The position numbers and the translations under genes are program-made. A stretch of 64,000 nt of DNA from Escherichia phage LHE287: the sequence record PP761450.1; one strand, given 5' to 3'. Below the pieces are notes generated by a model that saw nothing but the letters and a program-made list of their open reading frames with translations, was not told the DNA's origin and did no database searches. The stretch's first letter is position 1; each line of letters starts with the position of its first letter. Shown one piece after another: positions 21,293 through 52,188 of the stretch.

Positions 21293-21479
21293 CAGTTCGA
21301 AGGCGAGACCAGGGAATACTCCCACAAACAATTCCCTCCCCGTGAAGTTCATGACCAACAGTTCGTGAAATTGTTCTGTCGCTGTGGTGGTTGCGACTTC
21401 ACAGACGAAGGATATGCGATGCACGTATACTGCTGCAATTGCTGTGGTAAATACGTAACAGTCTATAGGAGAACCGAAC

Positions 21480-21905
21480 ATGGCGAAGAAACCTGAAGTC
21501 AAGAAAGTTGAAATTAAAACCGAAGCCCCAGTCGATGACATCCAGGCGAAGGAGGAAGGTGTGTTGCCTACCTACCTACAACGCGCCATCGATAACATCC
21601 CTCCAGGGGGAGACGGAGGCGTCGTCTACGCTGGCGGGTACGGTTGGGTGTGCGAATACCAAGACGGCACGAAGGAACTCCTCCAGGAGCTTCCAGGGCT
21701 GGCTGCGACCCTCAAGCGTTATGGTCGCGACAAGTTCGGCAAGCCGTTTGAAACCGGGGCTGTGATTGAAACCAACATCACAGTCGAGACTCTGAACCTG
21801 CTGGGTGAAGATGATCTCAAGTTGTTGGCTGCGCCGCTGGGTATCACAGAAGAAGATCGCATTCAGCTGATTGCGAAGCTGATCGAAAAATTGCAGATTA
21901 AATAA
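21480..21905 (+). CDS. hypothetical protein (141 aa)
   Basis: ATG with AGGAGA RBS. Confidence 0.5.
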   Translation: MAKKPEVKKVEIKTEAPVDDIQAKEEGVLPTYLQRAIDNIPPGGDGGVVYAGGYGWVCEYQDGTKELLQELPGLAATLKRYGRDKFGKPFETGAVIETNITVETLNLLGEDDLKLLAAPLGITEEDRIQLIAKLIEKLQIK

Positions 21906-21935
21906 GCCGGTGTACAACAGCTGAACTTATTCAAT

Positions 21936-22328
21936 ATGCCTATCGTTGACGAAAGCAACTTGATGGATTATGCACTGAGGCATTATATTGTAGATTCTGT
22001 CTCGTGGGATGAACTGCTGGTAGACATTCAGCGGATTTCGCTAATTAATCAATCATTGAAGAGATTTGTCCCTGGTAAGAGTCCTCGGTTGATTCTCAAT
22101 CAATTGATTACTGTCTTCAATACGTTCGAAACAGAGGCCGCTTGCCGTATGCTCGTTTTGAAGGTGGATAAGCCCCAGTTGCCACGCCTCAAGGCTGCTT
22201 TGTTGACATTAGGCGTATGGCGCGATGATTTATGTTCCGGTTCATACGAACCAGATAATGAGCTGATGATGGCTCTGAACAACGATTTGGATGAGTGGAG
22301 GAAACCATGCCAACGATCACTGTATTAG
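21936..22328 (+). CDS. hypothetical protein (130 aa)
   Basis: ATG-initiated ORF; no recognisable motif. Confidence 0.45.
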   Translation: MPIVDESNLMDYALRHYIVDSVSWDELLVDIQRISLINQSLKRFVPGKSPRLILNQLITVFNTFETEAACRMLVLKVDKPQLPRLKAALLTLGVWRDDLCSGSYEPDNELMMALNNDLDEWRKPCQRSLY

Positions 22329-24212: not shown

Positions 24213-24716
24213 TTGAGAAACTACATCATGATGCTGTTAATGAACGTTCCACAGAACAAGATGACCCCTGCAACAGAGGGTAAGAATCACTTCAACATCT
24301 ACAGCCGGAGCCAGACGGAACTCGGGCGCTTCCTCTCGCATTTTACCCATCATCCAATGACTACCCATGAACATGGTGTGTTTAACTCCATGGAGGGGTA
24401 CTGGTATTGGCTGAAGTATAGGGATGACAACCTGCGCCTGCTCGACGGTTATGAGGCCAAGCAATATGGACAGGGATTGGCGGCTTCTCGCGTCATTGTC
24501 CTGGACCCGTCTACCGAAGAATTCAAGCGCGATATCCTATTTGCAACTAGCATGAAACTCCAGACAATGCCTGAACGTCTGAAGATCAGATTGGCTTACA
24601 GTCGCCTACCCCTGATCCATGCATATGTTCAGAACGGGAAATACAGTTTTCAAAACTCTATGGACTATATCATTGCCCACATTAATCGTCTCCGCATACA
24701 AGGAACTTTGAAATGA
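24213..24716 (+). CDS. hypothetical protein (167 aa)
   Basis: ATG-initiated ORF; stop overlaps the next start. Confidence 0.45.
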   Translation: MRNYIMMLLMNVPQNKMTPATEGKNHFNIYSRSQTELGRFLSHFTHHPMTTHEHGVFNSMEGYWYWLKYRDDNLRLLDGYEAKQYGQGLAASRVIVLDPSTEEFKRDILFATSMKLQTMPERLKIRLAYSRLPLIHAYVQNGKYSFQNSMDYIIAHINRLRIQGTLK

Positions 24717-25294
24717 AATTTCTACACACTATCGTCGACACTTCTTATGACTGCACTGCTCATACCCCAGACCGTTCGCCTGTGTTTGTTCTGAACAAAC
24801 TAGGTGAAGAGATCTGTGAACTGTCTGATGTGTTTCATGGCATAGTATCTTCCGAGCCGTTGAATGGCGAAGTTGCTGATGTCATTATCTCTGCTATTGA
24901 CCTTCTGTACGTCATGGATTATGACGACGTCCAAATGCGCGGCTCTATGAACAAGGCCGAAATGATCGACTCTGTCATCAACCACATGGCGACAGTGAAC
25001 GATATTTCTTCTAATCTGTTGGAAGAAGACTGGTTCCGTCTGATTGATCGTGATCCTCAAAAGCATCTGAATCTTATCCATCATTATCATGGCCGGATTA
25101 TCCGATTGTGCAACCAGCCTTATCGCAGTCAAGACAGATTGGATCAACTCGTCAATGACCTAATCAAGCATGTTGCGCGCATGGGGTGTGGGGAAGGGGC
25201 GATCCGTGGATCCTCTTTGATGGCCACTCGCATTAAAGTGGAGCACGCTATTGAACACAAGGTTGAAAAGTGGCGTAGCAAATTTGGTCTATAA
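24713..25294 (+). CDS. MazG-like nucleoside triphosphate pyrophosphohydrolase (193 aa)
   Basis: MazG-type pattern LNKLGEEICELSD...EVADVIISAIDLLYV (EExxE...E..D). Confidence 0.4.
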   Translation: MKFLHTIVDTSYDCTAHTPDRSPVFVLNKLGEEICELSDVFHGIVSSEPLNGEVADVIISAIDLLYVMDYDDVQMRGSMNKAEMIDSVINHMATVNDISSNLLEEDWFRLIDRDPQKHLNLIHHYHGRIIRLCNQPYRSQDRLDQLVNDLIKHVARMGCGEGAIRGSSLMATRIKVEHAIEHKVEKWRSKFGL

Positions 25295-25343
25295 GCCAAT
25301 CCCATACATAATCTTGTGTGTTTACCATTGACGGGATAGGCCG

Positions 25344-33147: not shown

Positions 33148-33462
33148 ATGACCCCATTAAAAGAAATGTATGAGCGTCTGGCTGAACTACAGGCGAAGGA
33201 AAAGCGCTTCTCAGAAGAAGAGACAGAGCTGTCCGAGCTGAACACTTTGATCGCCACTCGTGAGAAGTACCTGCAGCGCTACATTAATCACCCGCCGCGC
33301 ATGGTAGACCGCGTCAGCACTATCATGGACCTGGATGAAGTTACTCCTGGCAAAGAAATCATTGTCAGGGAAGTCCACCAGATGGTCGCCATGGGTCAGA
33401 TCTTTGGTCGTGCAGACCAAGACGACATGATCTTCCTCCTTGAAAAGAAACTGGTGATGTGA
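33148..33462 (+). CDS. hypothetical protein (104 aa), coiled-coil-like
   Basis: ATG with GAGGAA RBS. Confidence 0.45.
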   Translation: MTPLKEMYERLAELQAKEKRFSEEETELSELNTLIATREKYLQRYINHPPRMVDRVSTIMDLDEVTPGKEIIVREVHQMVAMGQIFGRADQDDMIFLLEKKLVM

Positions 33463-33968
33463 TGGCTATCAAACCCCGTATGTTATTTGCGCATATGCGC
33501 TCGGCTCATGCATACGCTCTGTCCAGCTATGCCCAGCGCCTGAAGGTTGGCTGTGTTATCGTTGACCCGCGTGTTGACCAACCCCTGTCTATCGGTTGGA
33601 ACGGGACTGCTCCTGGCGCTCCTAATGTCTGTGAGAAGGAAGTAGACGGTCAACTGGTATCGGTGGGTGTTATCCACGCCGAGGAGAATGCTCTGAGCAA
33701 ACTCCCCCAGCACACTGAAGACTGTTGTGGTCTGGTGATGTTTGTCACTCATAGTCCATGCCCAGAGTGCACCCGTCGTATTATCGACAGTGGCAAGATC
33801 GCTAAAGTGTTCTACGACCGACCATATCGTATCATAGACGGCATTATTGAAATGCTGGATGCTGGGATTGAAGTATATCGCATGGTCGATCAGATTGTTG
33901 TAGTCCAGCATTCTGTGAAGAACGGCGAACTGGTATCCACCCCTGTTTTAGTGAACCCTGACAAATAA
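33459..33968 (+). CDS. cd: dCMP deaminase (cytidine/deoxycytidylate deaminase family)
   Basis: Zinc-binding motifs HAEENAL and HSPCPEC. Confidence 0.8.
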   Translation: MMAIKPRMLFAHMRSAHAYALSSYAQRLKVGCVIVDPRVDQPLSIGWNGTAPGAPNVCEKEVDGQLVSVGVIHAEENALSKLPQHTEDCCGLVMFVTHSPCPECTRRIIDSGKIAKVFYDRPYRIIDGIIEMLDAGIEVYRMVDQIVVVQHSVKNGELVSTPVLVNPDK

Positions 33969-43969: not shown

Positions 43970-45192
43970 AATTTCCTCAATTTGGCTCTAGTGACCTGAG
44001 TTTGTTTAACGCCGTTGTACTCAGTCAGTTCTTTGACACGACCACGGATGATCATATCGCCCTGCAAGAACTCTGTATCCATATAAGAGGTCTTCCAGGT
44101 AATTGTATTGCCTTCTGCTGTTTTGAAAGTAAACAGGTAACTATCACCATATTCATTGGAGAAGAGAAAGGTGCGCTTGTCGAACCTGACTTGCACTTCC
44201 AGCATTTCACCGACTTCACCCACCCATTTGTTCTCCGCCTTGCGGTCAGTACGAGGACGATGGATGTAATCGTAATACTTCTTGGCACCCCAGCGGACTG
44301 TGTTGTTATCCTTGATGAGGTGATAGCCGGGTTCACACATGCGTTTCAGGCGGACATTGAACTCATTGGATTCGGACAGCGCACTGATGAAGAGCTTCAT
44401 ATGGTACATTTCCGACTCGGCATCTTCACGGTATTCGTGTGCCTTGTTTACGAAATACTCTTCATCGGAACCTGCTTTTGGTTTCTGGTGAGACCGGACA
44501 TAGCCCAGTACTTTGTCAAACAGTTCAGACTTGATATCCACGCCTGCCAGCAACACTTGGAAGCATGCGCGCAGGTAACTGTGGGTGTCGGTGAAGCGCT
44601 CATTTTGGACGCGATATATACCCTCTGGGTCGTCCTCGTCTGGCATGAAGAACTCTTGGATTTCCAGATAGTAAGACATAATCGCGTCAAGGGACTTCTG
44701 ATGAGGCACATAATGATGCATACAGGTGCTACCAATCAGCATCTGGGTATGCGTTTCCTCATTTTCAATCACATACGTGTTCTTGCGACGGATGGCTAGA
44801 TTGCAATGCTGACACCAAGAGACGTTCTCTGTCTCGAAGCGACGGATGAAGTCAGGATTGATGTTGTCGGACAGGCGGTTAAGAATAACCTTTGGATATT
44901 CGTGATTGAACTGACCGATGATCTTCCAGCCACCATAAGAGATGGGGCGGTCAATGCCTTCGCCTTCGAGAGTAACAGGTTTCCACCAGTGAGTAAGGAT
45001 CTCACCAGTGAAGTCGCGGGTGTGGGTTTTGAAGGGTTCACCATAAGTCACGGTCGGAAACGGAACACCCAACCTTTCGGCAGTGCGCTCGAGCTTCTTC
45101 AGTCGCTCAACTACCAACCCTTCATTGTCGATCGGAATATTGAATGTTTTGACGTTCATTTCCAGCCTCATGATGTAGTTGTAACTCTTCAA
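43966..45192 (-). CDS. hypothetical protein (408 aa), possibly primase-related
   Basis: Lies where T4 places the primase gene after the helicase; has a Cys/His cluster (WCQHCN...STCMHH) but no clear TOPRIM motif. Confidence 0.3.
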   Translation of the reverse strand: MKSYNYIMRLEMNVKTFNIPIDNEGLVVERLKKLERTAERLGVPFPTVTYGEPFKTHTRDFTGEILTHWWKPVTLEGEGIDRPISYGGWKIIGQFNHEYPKVILNRLSDNINPDFIRRFETENVSWCQHCNLAIRRKNTYVIENEETHTQMLIGSTCMHHYVPHQKSLDAIMSYYLEIQEFFMPDEDDPEGIYRVQNERFTDTHSYLRACFQVLLAGVDIKSELFDKVLGYVRSHQKPKAGSDEEYFVNKAHEYREDAESEMYHMKLFISALSESNEFNVRLKRMCEPGYHLIKDNNTVRWGAKKYYDYIHRPRTDRKAENKWVGEVGEMLEVQVRFDKRTFLFSNEYGDSYLFTFKTAEGNTITWKTSYMDTEFLQGDMIIRGRVKELTEYNGVKQTQVTRAKLRKL

Positions 45193-47776: not shown

Positions 47777-48839
47777 GGTCCATTTGCTCCAGCATGTTAG
47801 CAGGCATAACAGTACCGTTAGAAACACCGAACATTTTCTTCACGTCATCGGCGAAGTTGACATTCTCCAGCAGCGGATACCAGAAATCATCATCCATCTG
47901 ACGCTTCTGATATTTCTTTTCCTTCTCAGGATCGAAACCACCCTTGGCTGTACGCACATACCAACCGGAAGACGGCATATCAACATAACCCAGAGCACGA
48001 GCGATCTCAAGCAGGCCGCTCCAGCGATCAATACCACCGTTGTACAGTACCGTCACAGGGAGCTTGGCTTTCTCTTTGACATGGCGACCTTTCATGATGC
48101 TTATGTTGAAGTTCCAACCCAGCAGATCTTTGTCTTCCTTCACCTGAGAACGGGTGATAAACCAGATCAAGTTGGATGATAAGAAGCCCTGCTTGCCGCC
48201 TTTGATGTTGGGCTCGGCATACTGGTTGCCGATCTCATCGTAATAGGAGTTGATCCAAACACACACGAGATTTTTGCTGTTGATTTCGGGAGTCATGACA
48301 CGCCAGAAGCTGTTAAGGGCACGGGCGCGGGTCATGTCTTGAGTGTCGTTCCCTTTGATCGCATCTTCAACTTCCTTGGTGGAGGGAAGTTGGCTGATAG
48401 AGTCGATGAAGATTATAACATGGTCGCCTTTCTTGACTTCCTGTAGGATCTGCAGCAAGCGGATCTTGGTCTGTTCAACGTTGTCGATCGGTACGTACAG
48501 GACGCGGTCCATGTCAATGCCCATAGAGGTCCAGTAATCGGCGTTGGCACCCTTTTCTGAGTCCGCAAAGACGCAGATAGCATCAGGGAACTTGTCCATG
48601 TACGCCTTGACGTCTACCAGACCGAACATCGTTTTGAAGGTACGGGAATCACCCACCATCATCTTGATACCGGAGATCAGACCGCCGTCAATACGCCCAG
48701 ACCATGCGATATCGATCAGGGGAATACCAGTAGAACAGATGATAGACGGTTCCAGAGCGTCGGATTTGGACAGCACTGAAGCCTGGTCATCGTGTTTCTT
48801 AGCAACCTTCAGCATGCGGTCCATTAATGAACTGGCCAT
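47754..48839 (-). CDS. uvsX: UvsX recombinase (RecA-like)
   Basis: RecA-type N-terminal ICSTGIPLID region, core ATPase; position upstream of the helicase as in T4. Confidence 0.75.
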   Translation of the reverse strand: MASSLMDRMLKVAKKHDDQASVLSKSDALEPSIICSTGIPLIDIAWSGRIDGGLISGIKMMVGDSRTFKTMFGLVDVKAYMDKFPDAICVFADSEKGANADYWTSMGIDMDRVLYVPIDNVEQTKIRLLQILQEVKKGDHVIIFIDSISQLPSTKEVEDAIKGNDTQDMTRARALNSFWRVMTPEINSKNLVCVWINSYYDEIGNQYAEPNIKGGKQGFLSSNLIWFITRSQVKEDKDLLGWNFNISIMKGRHVKEKAKLPVTVLYNGGIDRWSGLLEIARALGYVDMPSSGWYVRTAKGGFDPEKEKKYQKRQMDDDFWYPLLENVNFADDVKKMFGVSNGTVMPANMLEQMDHVINTSE

Positions 48840-49366
48840 TTCACTTCCTCTTTATTGTTGATCGTCGTTAATAATTCTACACCCATAACCTTCTGGGACA
48901 AAATGTTAACCGCCTCTTGGATGCTCTTCAGGGACATTGTCTCAACAAGTGACGATGCGTCATTATGCCGGTCGGTTAGGTACATATTGCGCAGATTGTT
49001 GTAGTTCGTGCGGTTGATGCACGCAGTGTTCAGTGCTATATTCAGGATATACATCATCTGTTCAATGGTTACATCCTTTGGCATAGCGTGGATGTAATAG
49101 ATCGAGCCTTCAAAATAGACGTCTACCAGTTCATCTGGTATCTTGATGCCACCACCGGCATACTCTTCGATCATCCTGAACAGAGACTCTGGTTGCTCGC
49201 TGGCGATCTTATGCGTAACAGTCGCCGAAAGACCGTCGCCCGGTTTAACAGGCCTGGTGTATTCGGTAAAGAATACATTATGACCGCCGCCGATGATGTG
49301 CTCGGCGAAATTAGCGGATGCGTTCGCCGCGTTGTCTGCATGATATGAAACGACGACTGTAAACAT
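48824..49366 (-). CDS. hypothetical protein (180 aa)
   Basis: Translationally coupled within the nucleotide-metabolism operon; no motif recognised. Confidence 0.45.
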   Translation of the reverse strand: MFTVVVSYHADNAANASANFAEHIIGGGHNVFFTEYTRPVKPGDGLSATVTHKIASEQPESLFRMIEEYAGGGIKIPDELVDVYFEGSIYYIHAMPKDVTIEQMMYILNIALNTACINRTNYNNLRNMYLTDRHNDASSLVETMSLKSIQEAVNILSQKVMGVELLTTINNKEEVKWPVH

Positions 49367-49920
49367 TAGAACTCCAGGGTCAGAGGGGTTTCTGCGGACT
49401 TATCGTAACCCGCACCGCCAGCAGCACGCAGACGGTTGCGATCGTTCTTGCGTTTGTGTGCCAGTATGTAAGTCTCAATGTCGATCTCCATATAAGAACA
49501 CGCAGACGACAGGAAGAACATGAGAGTCTCAACGCAAGGATCGTTCATGAATTGCCCAAGGCGGTACGTAACATTGCGATGCCCTACAACACCCAAAGCA
49601 GATGGGGTGAATTCGCGATTACTAAGGACTTCAAATTCTTCTTCGATCTCACCTTTGGTGCGGTCCACAAGGATGAAGCACAACATGAAGTGTACCACGT
49701 CTACCAGTTCATAAACTGCGTTCGTATGGTCAAACCCGATGTCGTTGCCATAGACCTTCCAGTCACGGGTGGTTTCATCAAGGAACTCTGCCCACTCACG
49801 ATAGATAGAGTTGATGACTGCGTTCTGACTCCATACATTCTTCCACTCTTCCCCAAAGTAGGCCACGTTAGTGGCCTTTTGGAGTTCGAGCAGGCTTTTG
49901 ATATGCCCTGCTGTGATCAT
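49366..49920 (-). CDS. all-alpha NTP pyrophosphohydrolase (MazG / dimeric dUTPase-like; T4 gp56-like dNTPase)
   Basis: Acidic helix pattern NAVYELVDVVHFML ... EIEEEFE; placed between the dNMP kinase and recombination genes. Confidence 0.4.
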   Translation of the reverse strand: MITAGHIKSLLELQKATNVAYFGEEWKNVWSQNAVINSIYREWAEFLDETTRDWKVYGNDIGFDHTNAVYELVDVVHFMLCFILVDRTKGEIEEEFEVLSNREFTPSALGVVGHRNVTYRLGQFMNDPCVETLMFFLSSACSYMEIDIETYILAHKRKNDRNRLRAAGGAGYDKSAETPLTLEF

Positions 49921-50486
49921 TTACGTTCTCCGTAGAATTTAACGAACGGTGCCCAACCATCAAATGGATTGAGGAATTCGTAGTCCACTTTCATTTGGTC
50001 AATGAAAGCCTCTATATCGTCCTCTATGATACCAGCACGGTCGGCCTTTGAAATACGGGTGATAGGACATTTCGTACTCAGCGCCCATTCATATTCCTGA
50101 GGGGTACGCAGATCGCTCACGATATAATGGACGTGGGGGTTCTGCTCTACCAGAGGAAGCTGGAAGCGCTTGAAGAATGCCAGGAACAGATCGGGTTGTA
50201 CGTAACGCAAGCCCGTATCGCTGCCTAGATGAAGCCAGATCTGCCGTGGAGTTAAGCCCTTGGGGTTATCAGGGTGCACGTAAGGAACGTCCTTCACGGC
50301 ATCCTCTACCTCCGCTGGCAGCCATGGATAGATGTAGTTGGCCACACGGCGCAGTTCATCTGAGAACGAAAGGCGCTGGATGTCCATATCACCCTGTAGT
50401 TGGTGATAGCTGATGAGGGACTCCAAACAGAAGTCCTTACCGGAGCGCTTGCGCCCCGTAAAGAATTCAAGATTTGGATACATCAT
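49917..50486 (-). CDS. 1: deoxynucleoside monophosphate kinase (T4 gene 1-like)
   Basis: P-loop GRKRSGKD matches the T4 dNMP kinase GxKRSGKD signature; overlaps ThyA-like gene by ATGA. Confidence 0.65.
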   Translation of the reverse strand: MMYPNLEFFTGRKRSGKDFCLESLISYHQLQGDMDIQRLSFSDELRRVANYIYPWLPAEVEDAVKDVPYVHPDNPKGLTPRQIWLHLGSDTGLRYVQPDLFLAFFKRFQLPLVEQNPHVHYIVSDLRTPQEYEWALSTKCPITRISKADRAGIIEDDIEAFIDQMKVDYEFLNPFDGWAPFVKFYGERK

Positions 50487-51529
50487 ACTACACCTTCCAG
50501 GAACTTAGGATCAATGATCTTGCGGTCAACCGGGGAATGGGTGAGCGCGATGTTCAAGCCATGATCCTGAATCAGGTCCAGGTTAATGAGCTTTTCGTTC
50601 AGTTTGCAGTGCAGACAGTACGCCATCTGTACAATCAGGCCACGATCAGCATCATATTCCTTCAGGTGGGCGACCACAGTTTCCCACGGGCTGCCGATAT
50701 CACAGTGATGAAGCACACCAGTGAACAGATTGCGGATATGGTTCTGGTTGGTCACGTTCGTGAAGTGAATCATGGAGTTGATGAACCCAGCTTCTACTTT
50801 GGTGTCCTTCGTGATCTTGCCAAGCTGCTTCTGGCTGACTTCATTGTTGTAGTAATGAAGATTGTTAGAGAATAGCTTGTACTGACCGACATCAACATCT
50901 AACACCTGAGCAATCACTTCCTGAAGAATAGAGAACTCAATGAAGTTGATTGAACTCATCCCCCACAGAACATCCTGTGAGCGGTTGATGACCGTCAGGT
51001 TCAGACGACCTTCAACGATGGAGAACAACAGAGCCAGATTACACACCATGTCCTTGGTCTTCGCTTCGCCGCTCTCGCTGAACTTCGCCAGACCAGCATC
51101 CGAATCTAGAGCCGGGTCATAGATGGTGAGGTACGCCTGGCGAGTGTTTGGGTTCTTGCGCAGGCGGTTGATAACGCTATCCAGCTGGCCATGGGCGTAC
51201 AGACGCGGACCATAAGCAGCTCGCCATGTTACCCCATCATCCGAAAAGTTAGCAGCGCGAGGCAATACGCGTGACAGGAACTTTATGTCGTTGCGACCTG
51301 ACAACACCCAGAAGGTCTCGCCGATGGCAGCGATAGCCGATGAGTTGCGACCTTCAACGGAGAGCCAGCGGTCACGGATGTCGGCGACGGTTATGGTCAC
51401 GCCATCAAGGAAGCGGGTGCTATCAGTATTGATTTCAGCATTACCAGGATCAGATTCGATCCCGAATTCACGGATAGCCAAGACAGCCTGCTTCAGCATG
51501 TCATTGTTGTTAATTGCTTTGATTTCCAT
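50483..51529 (-). CDS. thymidylate-synthase-family enzyme; candidate dUMP hydroxymethylase
   Basis: ThyA-fold motifs RQAYLTIYDP, Cys in KDMVCNLALLF, and NRSQDVLWGMSSINFIEFSIL (RSxD ... NI/F region; Asn suggests a dUMP substrate); the hydroxymethylase role is inferred from context. Confidence 0.6.
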   Translation of the reverse strand: MEIKAINNNDMLKQAVLAIREFGIESDPGNAEINTDSTRFLDGVTITVADIRDRWLSVEGRNSSAIAAIGETFWVLSGRNDIKFLSRVLPRAANFSDDGVTWRAAYGPRLYAHGQLDSVINRLRKNPNTRQAYLTIYDPALDSDAGLAKFSESGEAKTKDMVCNLALLFSIVEGRLNLTVINRSQDVLWGMSSINFIEFSILQEVIAQVLDVDVGQYKLFSNNLHYYNNEVSQKQLGKITKDTKVEAGFINSMIHFTNVTNQNHIRNLFTGVLHHCDIGSPWETVVAHLKEYDADRGLIVQMAYCLHCKLNEKLINLDLIQDHGLNIALTHSPVDRKIIDPKFLEGVV

Positions 51530-52188
51530 CAGATACTCCCAAAATCACGACAGAGGAATGCCATCACAGCCTGGTCTACTGTTAGGCCGTGAGACTTCAT
51601 CATACCCGCAGCCACCGTAGGGAACAAGTCTTTATGTCGTTGACGATGGTCATGAACTCTCTCCCACTTCTCGACCACCAGACTTTCATTGAAGTCCACA
51701 CCACCGTTACGTGATTTAACGCGGGAGATACACGTTTCAAGGGGAGTGTCCATAAAGAGCACAACCAATTCACGTGGTGGGCGTGTCAGGCGGGGGATCC
51801 AAGAACTCAATAATGTGGATGGAATGATACCTTCGAAAATCACATCATATTTCAAGTATTCTGGTTGGTCAGCAATAGACAACGCGAACAACATCTGCTC
51901 AGTGTCCTTCAGGGAATCAACCCCCTTGGACTTCGACTTGTCATATTTACCGATACAGACCACGTTGAACGAAGGACAGACAGTCAGCATGACCTTGCCG
52001 TTATGGGTCACGACATACGCCTGAGGATCCCTCTCCGCCAGCTGAGACGGCACAGTGGATTTACCGCTACCATTGGAGCCTTTGACGTAGTAGATTTGCC
52101 CTCGTGCTGGGTAGATCCCCTTTACGACGGGTGGTTTAAAGAATGTGTGGACGGGGCGCTTCATCAGCCCCTTCAGGGAGTAGGACAT
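51529..52188 (-). CDS. P-loop kinase, paralog of 10120..11037
   Basis: Walker A GSNGSGKST, Walker-B-like DVIFEGIIP; same motif order as the other P-loop kinase; first gene of the coupled operon. Confidence 0.5.
   Translation of the reverse strand: MSYSLKGLMKRPVHTFFKPPVVKGIYPARGQIYYVKGSNGSGKSTVPSQLAERDPQAYVVTHNGKVMLTVCPSFNVVCIGKYDKSKSKGVDSLKDTEQMLFALSIADQPEYLKYDVIFEGIIPSTLLSSWIPRLTRPPRELVVLFMDTPLETCISRVKSRNGGVDFNESLVVEKWERVHDHRQRHKDLFPTVAAGMMKSHGLTVDQAVMAFLCRDFGSI

Follow-up and report, generated by a model that had tools for sequence, protein, structure and literature searches.

A gene at 24713..25294 on the plus strand of Escherichia phage LHE287 (PP761450.1) encodes a 193-residue protein related to the MazG nucleoside triphosphate (NTP) pyrophosphohydrolases. 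The stretch that was analysed, called the window in what follows, is 64,000 nucleotides long and also holds, at 49366..49920, a second all-alpha NTPase. A first-pass annotation, made from the sequence itself, had described the first of these as a MazG-type enzyme lying upstream of the topoisomerase genes and outside the main operon, and had proposed that the two differ in specificity, for example with one removing dTTP and dUTP and the other another canonical or signalling nucleotide such as (p)ppGpp. Here the two products are referred to as the 24713 protein and the 49366 protein. Our comparisons indicate that the 24713 protein very likely consists of two MazG-like modules in one chain, each of which has kept what the other has lost, and that the dTTP/dUTP role belongs most plausibly to the 49366 protein.

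A core gene of enterobacterial-type Ackermannviridae

The reading frame has exactly the ends given to it by the first-pass annotation, and a Shine-Dalgarno sequence can be read ahead of its start codon (Table 1). A tblastn search with the 24713 protein matched 278 phage records, 276 of them over the full length, at 51-99% identity. Every one of the 278 is an Ackermannviridae-type phage, Vi01 (phage ViI) included, in which the gene is Vi01_011; the homologues form 50 protein clusters of 190-208 residues. The reading frame is therefore a genuine gene and not a chance one, and it is a core gene of the enterobacterial-type Ackermannviridae. The window itself is DNA of a ViI-type Ackermannviridae phage: the 2 kb around the gene share 99.3% identity with Escherichia phage YX22, Enterobacter phage fGh-Ecl02 and Escherichia phage AV101, and 81-94% with many further Ackermannviridae.

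The MazG-like assignment of the family already stands in public annotation, and in that respect the gene is fairly ordinary. PHROG 1247, "MazG-like pyrophosphatase", matches the 24713 protein at E=1.6e-35, and the same label is attached to Vi01_011 in RefSeq and to homologues in pharokka-type annotations; other records read "hypothetical" or "viral tegument-like protein". Literature searches returned no functional study for MazG in Ackermannviridae or Kuttervirus, nor for "tegument-like protein" in phages. A scan for promoters and terminators around 24713..25294 gave counts not above those of shuffled sequence.

Catalytic motif and link to the MazG superfamily

Three alignments were used: one of the 24713 family (A1), one of the 49366 family (A2) and one of 15 small MazG-like proteins (A4). 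Among 25 homologues of 49-98% identity, E32, E33 and E36 (an EExxE motif) and E53 and D56 (ExxD) are invariant. The catalytic acidic residues, whose absence from an alignment the first-pass annotation had named as evidence against its assignment, are thus in place. Relatives of 23-39% identity keep E33, E36, E53 and D56, along with R21, K29, E48, D63, K183, K186 and W187. The arrangement agrees with the superfamily signature, in which EExxE and, 12-28 residues on, ExxD lie on two consecutive helices, and the fold with the all-alpha helical bundle common to MazG, HisE and dimeric dUTPase. In M. tuberculosis MazG, E119/E122/E138/D141 are the reported Mg ligands; they are spaced 3/16/3, and E33/E36/E53/D56 of the 24713 protein comparably, 3/17/3.

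Only 34 relatives of the family came up at E <=1e-3 when 1.8 billion representative proteins were searched with a profile; few of them are full length, and most are about 100-118 residues long and cover profile positions 5-95. The small proteins of A4 have in common the pattern S..P.R / KL.EE.GE / N.P.(K/R) / EPL.GE.AD.II..DL / K..KW. Among solved structures, the MazG-like proteins reached by the A4 profile are YpjD 2gta (E=5e-4) and 5ie9, with SSO3215 1vmg, 2q73 and MazZ 7ody as weaker matches (E=0.016-0.025); in hhalign A1 matched A4 with a probability of 99.4% (E=5.7e-21). P0065, a longer relative from T4-like phages, scores 22.3 bits against PF03819, for which the gathering score is 22. 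Because this transitive evidence, leading from A1 through A4 to MazG structures, is joined by the motif, membership of the 24713 protein in the MazG, or all-alpha NTP pyrophosphohydrolase, superfamily is supported by remote homology. The description "MazG-type" is accordingly sound as regards the superfamily and the intact metal motif, but it holds by remote homology only: no Pfam family matches directly, and among solved folds the dimeric dUTPases come closest, the staphylococcal phage Dut 5myd being second-best. A farnesyltransferase match in the PDB sequence search, in the range E=0.1-0.3, was judged to be chance.

A probable tandem of complementary modules

The A4 profile finds two matches in the 24713 protein by hmmsearch, at residues 5-88 and, more weakly, 113-191. 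Five family members, including the Vi01 and vB_CECAV_050 orthologues and two distant relatives (L002 and L003), show the second match without a change of register. By hhalign, the N-terminal half matches A4 with a probability of 99.4-99.7% (E down to 2.5e-25), and the C-terminal half (residues 101-193) with one of 98.3% (E=2e-14), in an alignment that spans nearly the whole small protein; with the last helix removed, the C-terminal half gives 95.7% (E=9e-9). Controls for the C-terminal half gave E-values of 0.08-0.9 for 30 column-shuffled versions of A4, 0.27 for A4 reversed and 0.08-0.37 for two alignments of unrelated families. Matches of the C-terminal half to designed helical-repeat proteins in the PDB were rejected as spurious, being sums of low-scoring repeats.

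The modules differ in what they retain. In the C-module the acidic positions are replaced, EE.GE becoming H124 Y125. G127 R128 and E..D becoming L146..D149, which is not conserved. Retained are the loop N134 Q135 P136. R138 (NQPxR), D141 and, at the C-terminus, a helix with K183..K186 W187; G127, N134, Q135, R138, K183, K186 and W187 vary little or not at all. The N-module has the reverse pattern: it has kept the acidic ligands, and of the NxPx(K/R) loop and K..KW helix it has lost both. Judged by its alignment, the C-module is under constraint. We hold the tandem, half-degenerate architecture to be very likely; it is a new detail, the two modules having escaped the first-pass annotation.

The enzyme of the hydroxymethyluracil operon

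ViI-type phages first make their DNA with 5-hydroxymethyldeoxyuridine (5-hydroxymethyl-dU, here hmU or 5-hmdU) in place of thymidine, which requires the removal of dTTP (PMC8989533). The thymidine-hypermodification genes typical of these phages are present in the window, all on the minus strand, and the gene of the 49366 protein is among them. As had been stated, the 24713 gene stands outside this operon; it is about 24 kb away and on the opposite strand.

By its profile match, the 49366 protein is a member of dUTPase_2 (Pfam PF08761, 36.8 bits against a cut-off of 22.9). A profile comparison matches it to the C. jejuni dUTPase 1w2y at E=1.8e-6, and Q14, N18, E42, E45, E71, D74, H77 and F78 are invariant in A2; among these, Q14, N18, H77 and F78 align with the uracil-recognition motifs of the C. 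jejuni enzyme (QxxxN, and HF after ExxD). Acinetobacter phage SH-Ab 15599 encodes a protein, gp18, whose C-terminal domain is homologous to the 49366 protein (hidden Markov model (HMM) E=4.9e-13, BLASTP E=4e-10), with the Q and N of QxxxN aligned, and the N-terminal domain of gp18 resembles the deoxynucleoside monophosphate (dNMP) kinase of the window (BLASTP E=9e-19). The gp18 gene lies between those for a dUMP hydroxymethylase and UvsX, which is the position of the two separate genes in the window. Since gp18 hydrolyses dTTP and dUTP and leaves 5hmdUTP intact (PMC13458397), and since homology and synteny tie the 49366 protein to it, the dTTP/dUTP role that had been proposed for one of the two enzymes falls most plausibly to this one, a probable dTTPase/dUTPase by sequence. 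The two genes at 49366..50486 (minus strand) correspond to the single fused gp18 gene (L009, 11151..12326); genes of the hmU pathway have here undergone either a fusion or a fission.

No similarity between the 24713 and 49366 proteins was detectable by BLASTP, the hhalign probability of A1 against A2 was 0.7%, and PF08761 gave no match to the 24713 protein. By these comparisons paralogy of the two enzymes is rejected. At the places of the uracil-binding residues of A2, the invariant residues in the 24713 family are T10/S11 and I59/S60 (positions matched by the order of helices, not by superposition). The lack of mutual similarity, together with the absence of the uracil-binding motifs from the 24713 family, supports different specificities, and the proposal that the two enzymes have separate ones is plausible.

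HMM scans found no A1 or A4 match in the whole SH-Ab 15599 genome or in 150 of the 160 kb of Vibrio phage 1.255.O (MG592621), although both phages carry the hmU cluster and a homologue of A2. The hmU pathway can therefore do without a 24713-type gene. Small MazG-like relatives are found in 297 records of T4-like phages, those infecting Klebsiella, Aeromonas and Enterobacter among them. In contigs of 167 kb from this group (L005/L006, 8001..8621) the small module has an extra N-terminal domain of about 100 residues, and its gene is flanked by cef and the topoisomerase large-subunit gene, approximately where Ackermannviridae have the tandem gene. The 16.6 kb around that T4-like gene contain no hmU-pathway gene.

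Neighbouring genes and a third all-alpha NTPase

The stop codon of an upstream gene for a NADAR-fold protein overlaps the start codon of the MazG-like gene within ATGA, so that the latter is predicted to be translationally coupled to it, a point missed in the first-pass annotation. The overlapping start is also present in Vi01 and in metagenomic relatives of 26-27% identity, where the order is rIIA, rIIB, further genes, the homologue of the NADAR gene, the tandem gene and topoisomerase II. Downstream, 49 nucleotides (25295..25343) separate the MazG-like gene from that of the topoisomerase II large subunit, in agreement with the position upstream of the topoisomerase genes noted earlier. In many relatives, among them vB_CECAV_050, LIMEstone1 (F-LimI) and RPN242, that spot is occupied by a gene for an HNH homing endonuclease some 830 nucleotides long (L001, 7285..8115), a presence/absence polymorphism of a mobile element. 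Vibrio phage 1.255.O, also of the Ackermannviridae, has a pyridoxal phosphate enzyme and a NADAR-like gene (44294..44842); topoisomerase II genes are not annotated in it.

A gene for a phage ACT-like protein belongs to the hmU operon, where it has the dUTPase_2 gene on one side and uvsX on the other and the ends of the genes overlap. Since small molecules are the usual ligands of ACT domains, the protein may regulate the hmU pathway.

Genomes of the family also encode a third all-alpha NTPase, of about 166-185 residues and PRA-PH-like (21.6 bits against a cut-off of 21.3), whose gene adjoins that of the translational repressor regA and is found in 347 phage records. It has no sequence relation to the 24713 or the 49366 protein. 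Within the window no such gene was found: tblastn matches all stayed at E-values of 8 or above, and the motif EExxE..ExxD gave no additional candidate. Because the third enzyme lies outside the window, the earlier count of two such enzymes is right for the window and too low for the genomes.

Table 1. Positions of the genes, modules and signals discussed (window coordinates except in the last two rows)
Feature	Position	Strand	Remarks
Putative tandem MazG-like pyrophosphohydrolase gene	24713..25294	+	193 residues; ATG start; stop codon 25292..25294; orthologue of Vi01_011
N-module, predicted catalytic MazG-like (residues 1-95)	24713..24997	+	EExxE, ExxD, invariant R21, K29, E48, D63
C-module, predicted degenerate MazG-like (residues 101-193)	25013..25291	+	hmmsearch second domain; hhalign against A4
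NADAR-fold protein gene	24228..24716	+	162 residues from ATG 24228; open reading frame opens at TTG 24213; PHROG 652 "unknown function"
Predicted translational-coupling junction	24700..24716	+	AAGGAA (Shine-Dalgarno) 24700..24705; ATGA overlap (TGA stop, ATG start) 24713..24716; read from the sequence
dCMP deaminase	33459..33968		window gene
Phage ACT-like protein	48824..49366	-	PF24021, E=1e-78
dUTPase_2 enzyme	49366..49920	-	Pfam PF08761
dNMP kinase	49917..50486	-	hmU cluster
Thymidylate-synthase homologue	50483..51529	-	hmU cluster
5-hmdU DNA kinase	51529..52188	-	PF18748
Third NTPase, Dickeya phage LIMEstone1 (NC_019925)	83155..83697		outside the window
Third NTPase, Vibrio phage 1.255.O (L008)	21449..21949		outside the window

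Discussion

The reading that we favour, with somewhat more confidence than doubt, is that the 24713 protein is a divalent-metal-dependent nucleotide pyrophosphohydrolase in which a single chain forms a pseudo-dimer. A tandem duplication would have affected an ancestral MazG-like module, small (about 100 residues) and of a kind that T4-like phages have in stand-alone versions. The N-module would have kept four to five acidic metal ligands (E32/E33/E36, E53/D56), and the C-module would have lost its own while keeping N134, Q135, P136 and R138 and K183, K186 and W187. In the MazG/HisE fold, the pocket lies at the dimer interface and the metal ligands come from a single chain (PMC8342488). Complementary decay of both modules would then leave one composite active site per chain, in which metals held by the N-module may activate water for cleavage of the alpha-beta phosphoanhydride bond, yielding a nucleoside monophosphate (NMP) and pyrophosphate (PPi), with the phosphates held by basic residues of the C-module. 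The target would be another nucleotide harmful to infection, for instance (p)ppGpp or another nucleotide of stress or immunity, or else a non-canonical (d)NTP, although any one substrate singled out by name is unlikely to be the right one. That the protein is an active NTP pyrophosphohydrolase is likely, to judge from its invariant motif.

Several observations weigh against this reading. Neither Pfam (E up to 1) nor NCBIfam holds a family that matches the 24713 protein, MazG PF03819 and PRA-PH PF01503 included, and PDB sequence searches with the single sequence or the A1 profile reached only E=0.1-0.3 (MazZ). A Foldseek search of the PDB was marginal (E=0.27, TM-score 0.44-0.51). Direct comparison of the N-terminal with the C-terminal half gave no significant match (E=0.16), so that the duplication is drawn only through A4, and a PDB search with the profile of the C-terminal half brought up no MazG structure. 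The most distant relatives do not share R128. That there is a single composite site, and which residues face it, is what we infer, and no published enzymatic assay of the family was found in the literature. As for the pathway, absence of the gene from two Ackermannviridae lineages is still compatible with a role in nucleotide pools where it is present.

The two enzymes of the window could share the work of thymidine replacement, one removing dUTP and the other dTTP (or the diphosphates), so that only 5-hmdUTP is left for the phage polymerase. Phages that use 5-hmdU must clear dTTP, dTTPase and dUTPase activities belong to the hmU pathway, and the dUTPase-like folds nearest to the 24713 protein and the universal presence of its gene in ViI-type phages making 5-NeOmdU fit such a role. 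Yet the 49366 enzyme already matches a bifunctional dTTPase/dUTPase in homology, synteny and the aligned Q and N, whereas the 24713 protein lacks the QxxxN and HF motifs and any profile similarity to the dUTPase_2 family. The tandem gene is missing, moreover, from SH-Ab 15599 and from the 150 kb searched of Vibrio phage 1.255.O, which both run the hmU pathway, and its closest small relatives belong to T4-like phages whose locus has no gene of that pathway. None of the five SH-Ab 15599 genes that were co-expressed for the dapT pathway in E. coli is MazG-like (0/5; PMC13458397). We consider a second thymidine-replacement enzyme improbable. Because the 24713 protein has no uracil-binding motifs and is absent from hmU-carrying Ackermannviridae, it probably has another role, and on balance we expect that role to be independent of the hmU pathway.

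Such a role might lie in counter-defence, the enzyme destroying an immunity or stress nucleotide, (p)ppGpp or one derived from ADP-ribose, rather than tuning dNTP pools. Precedents exist for both genes of the pair: phage NADARs (AdfN) counter DarTG1 by taking ADP-ribose off DNA, and Atd1, a phage MazG-like enzyme, hydrolyses ppGpp and protects against TIR effectors. The pair with its ATGA overlap persists in the relatives of 26-27% identity, and in rV5-like phages MazG-superfamily pyrophosphatases recur in gene neighbourhoods linked to NAD and ADP-ribose. The sole link, however, is gene adjacency, and we know of no all-alpha NTP pyrophosphohydrolase that cleaves ADP-ribose. In the 150 kb covered of Vibrio phage 1.255.O the NADAR-like gene is present and no MazG-like gene was found, and tblastn with the 24713 protein matched no Pectobacterium phage at E <=1e-3, so that it detected no similarity to the Atd1-carrying phage. 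A cyanophage MazG is stated, in the title of its report (PMC6850273), to be unable to hydrolyse magic-spot nucleotides and is thus a counter-example for a (p)ppGpp substrate. We regard the counter-defence reading as unlikely, and give as little credence to its fuller form, a two-gene cassette across Ackermannviridae in which NADAR would strip ADP-ribose from phage DNA and the pseudo-dimeric MazG-like enzyme would destroy an alarmone or immune signal. That the protein is no enzyme at all, and has become a structural or regulatory protein of MazG-like fold or a signalling protein like the dimeric Duts of staphylococcal phages, is very improbable. Some GenBank records do use the label "viral tegument-like protein", and some call the NADAR-like neighbour "virion structural protein"; the second-best fold match, 5myd, leads to the staphylococcal phage dimeric dUTPases, studied, by the titles of the reports, for a role in pathogenicity-island mobilisation. 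But all metal-binding acidic residues and the basic residues of the phosphate-binding type are invariant over deep divergence, which is hard to explain without catalysis, and the literature searches gave nothing on the tegument-like label in phages.

These results do not overturn current understanding. What they add is the probable half-degenerate tandem, the probable allocation of the dTTPase/dUTPase role to the 49366 gene and the predicted coupling to the NADAR-fold gene. ViI-type phages, with Salmonella, E. coli, Klebsiella and Dickeya as hosts, find wide use and attract much study, and their DNA hypermodification is an active research topic. For reconstitution of the pathway it is useful to know which of the all-alpha NTPases is the likely dTTPase/dUTPase, and hence which gene to use, and proteins of the Vi01_011 type become candidates for a separate function, maybe one related to host defence. 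Were the counter-defence cassette real, the 24713 protein would be an anti-immunity enzyme and not a DNA-precursor enzyme. The half-degenerate tandem would be a tidy case of a homodimeric enzyme turned single-chain pseudo-dimer, and it predicts which residues to mutate.

Among known systems, the closest likeness is to the small MazG-like NTP pyrophosphohydrolases (B. subtilis YpjD 2gta, 5ie9, Sulfolobus SSO3215 1vmg, 2q73 and phage S-2L MazZ 7ody) and to the small MazG-like proteins of T4-like phages, which have the same order of motifs. The set in common comprises S..P.R, KL.EE.GE, EPL.GE.AD.II..DL and the C-terminal K..KW, and includes the same four acidic metal ligands. Those proteins, however, are about 100-120 residues long and have one module (MazZ is a homo-oligomer), whereas the 24713 protein appears to have two per chain with complementary loss of motifs. 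It resembles E. coli MazG (3cra) in having two MazG-like modules in one polypeptide and in the chemistry expected of it, NTP to NMP and PPi; in two-domain MazG, acidic motifs are a feature of both modules, and in the 24713 protein the C-module has lost them. As for the dimeric dUTPases and dCTPases (1w2y, 5myd, the 49366 protein and gp18), the 24713 protein has neither sequence or profile similarity to them nor their uracil-recognition residues, and the phyletic spread of its family differs from that of the dUTPase_2 enzymes. With Atd1 of Pectobacterium phage PcCB7V it shares the description of a phage MazG-like enzyme from a lytic enterobacterial phage, and Atd1 may serve as a model for a function beyond DNA precursor metabolism. 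Atd1, described as a single MazG catalytic domain, belongs to another group of phages, and the 24713 protein differs from it in its probable two modules.

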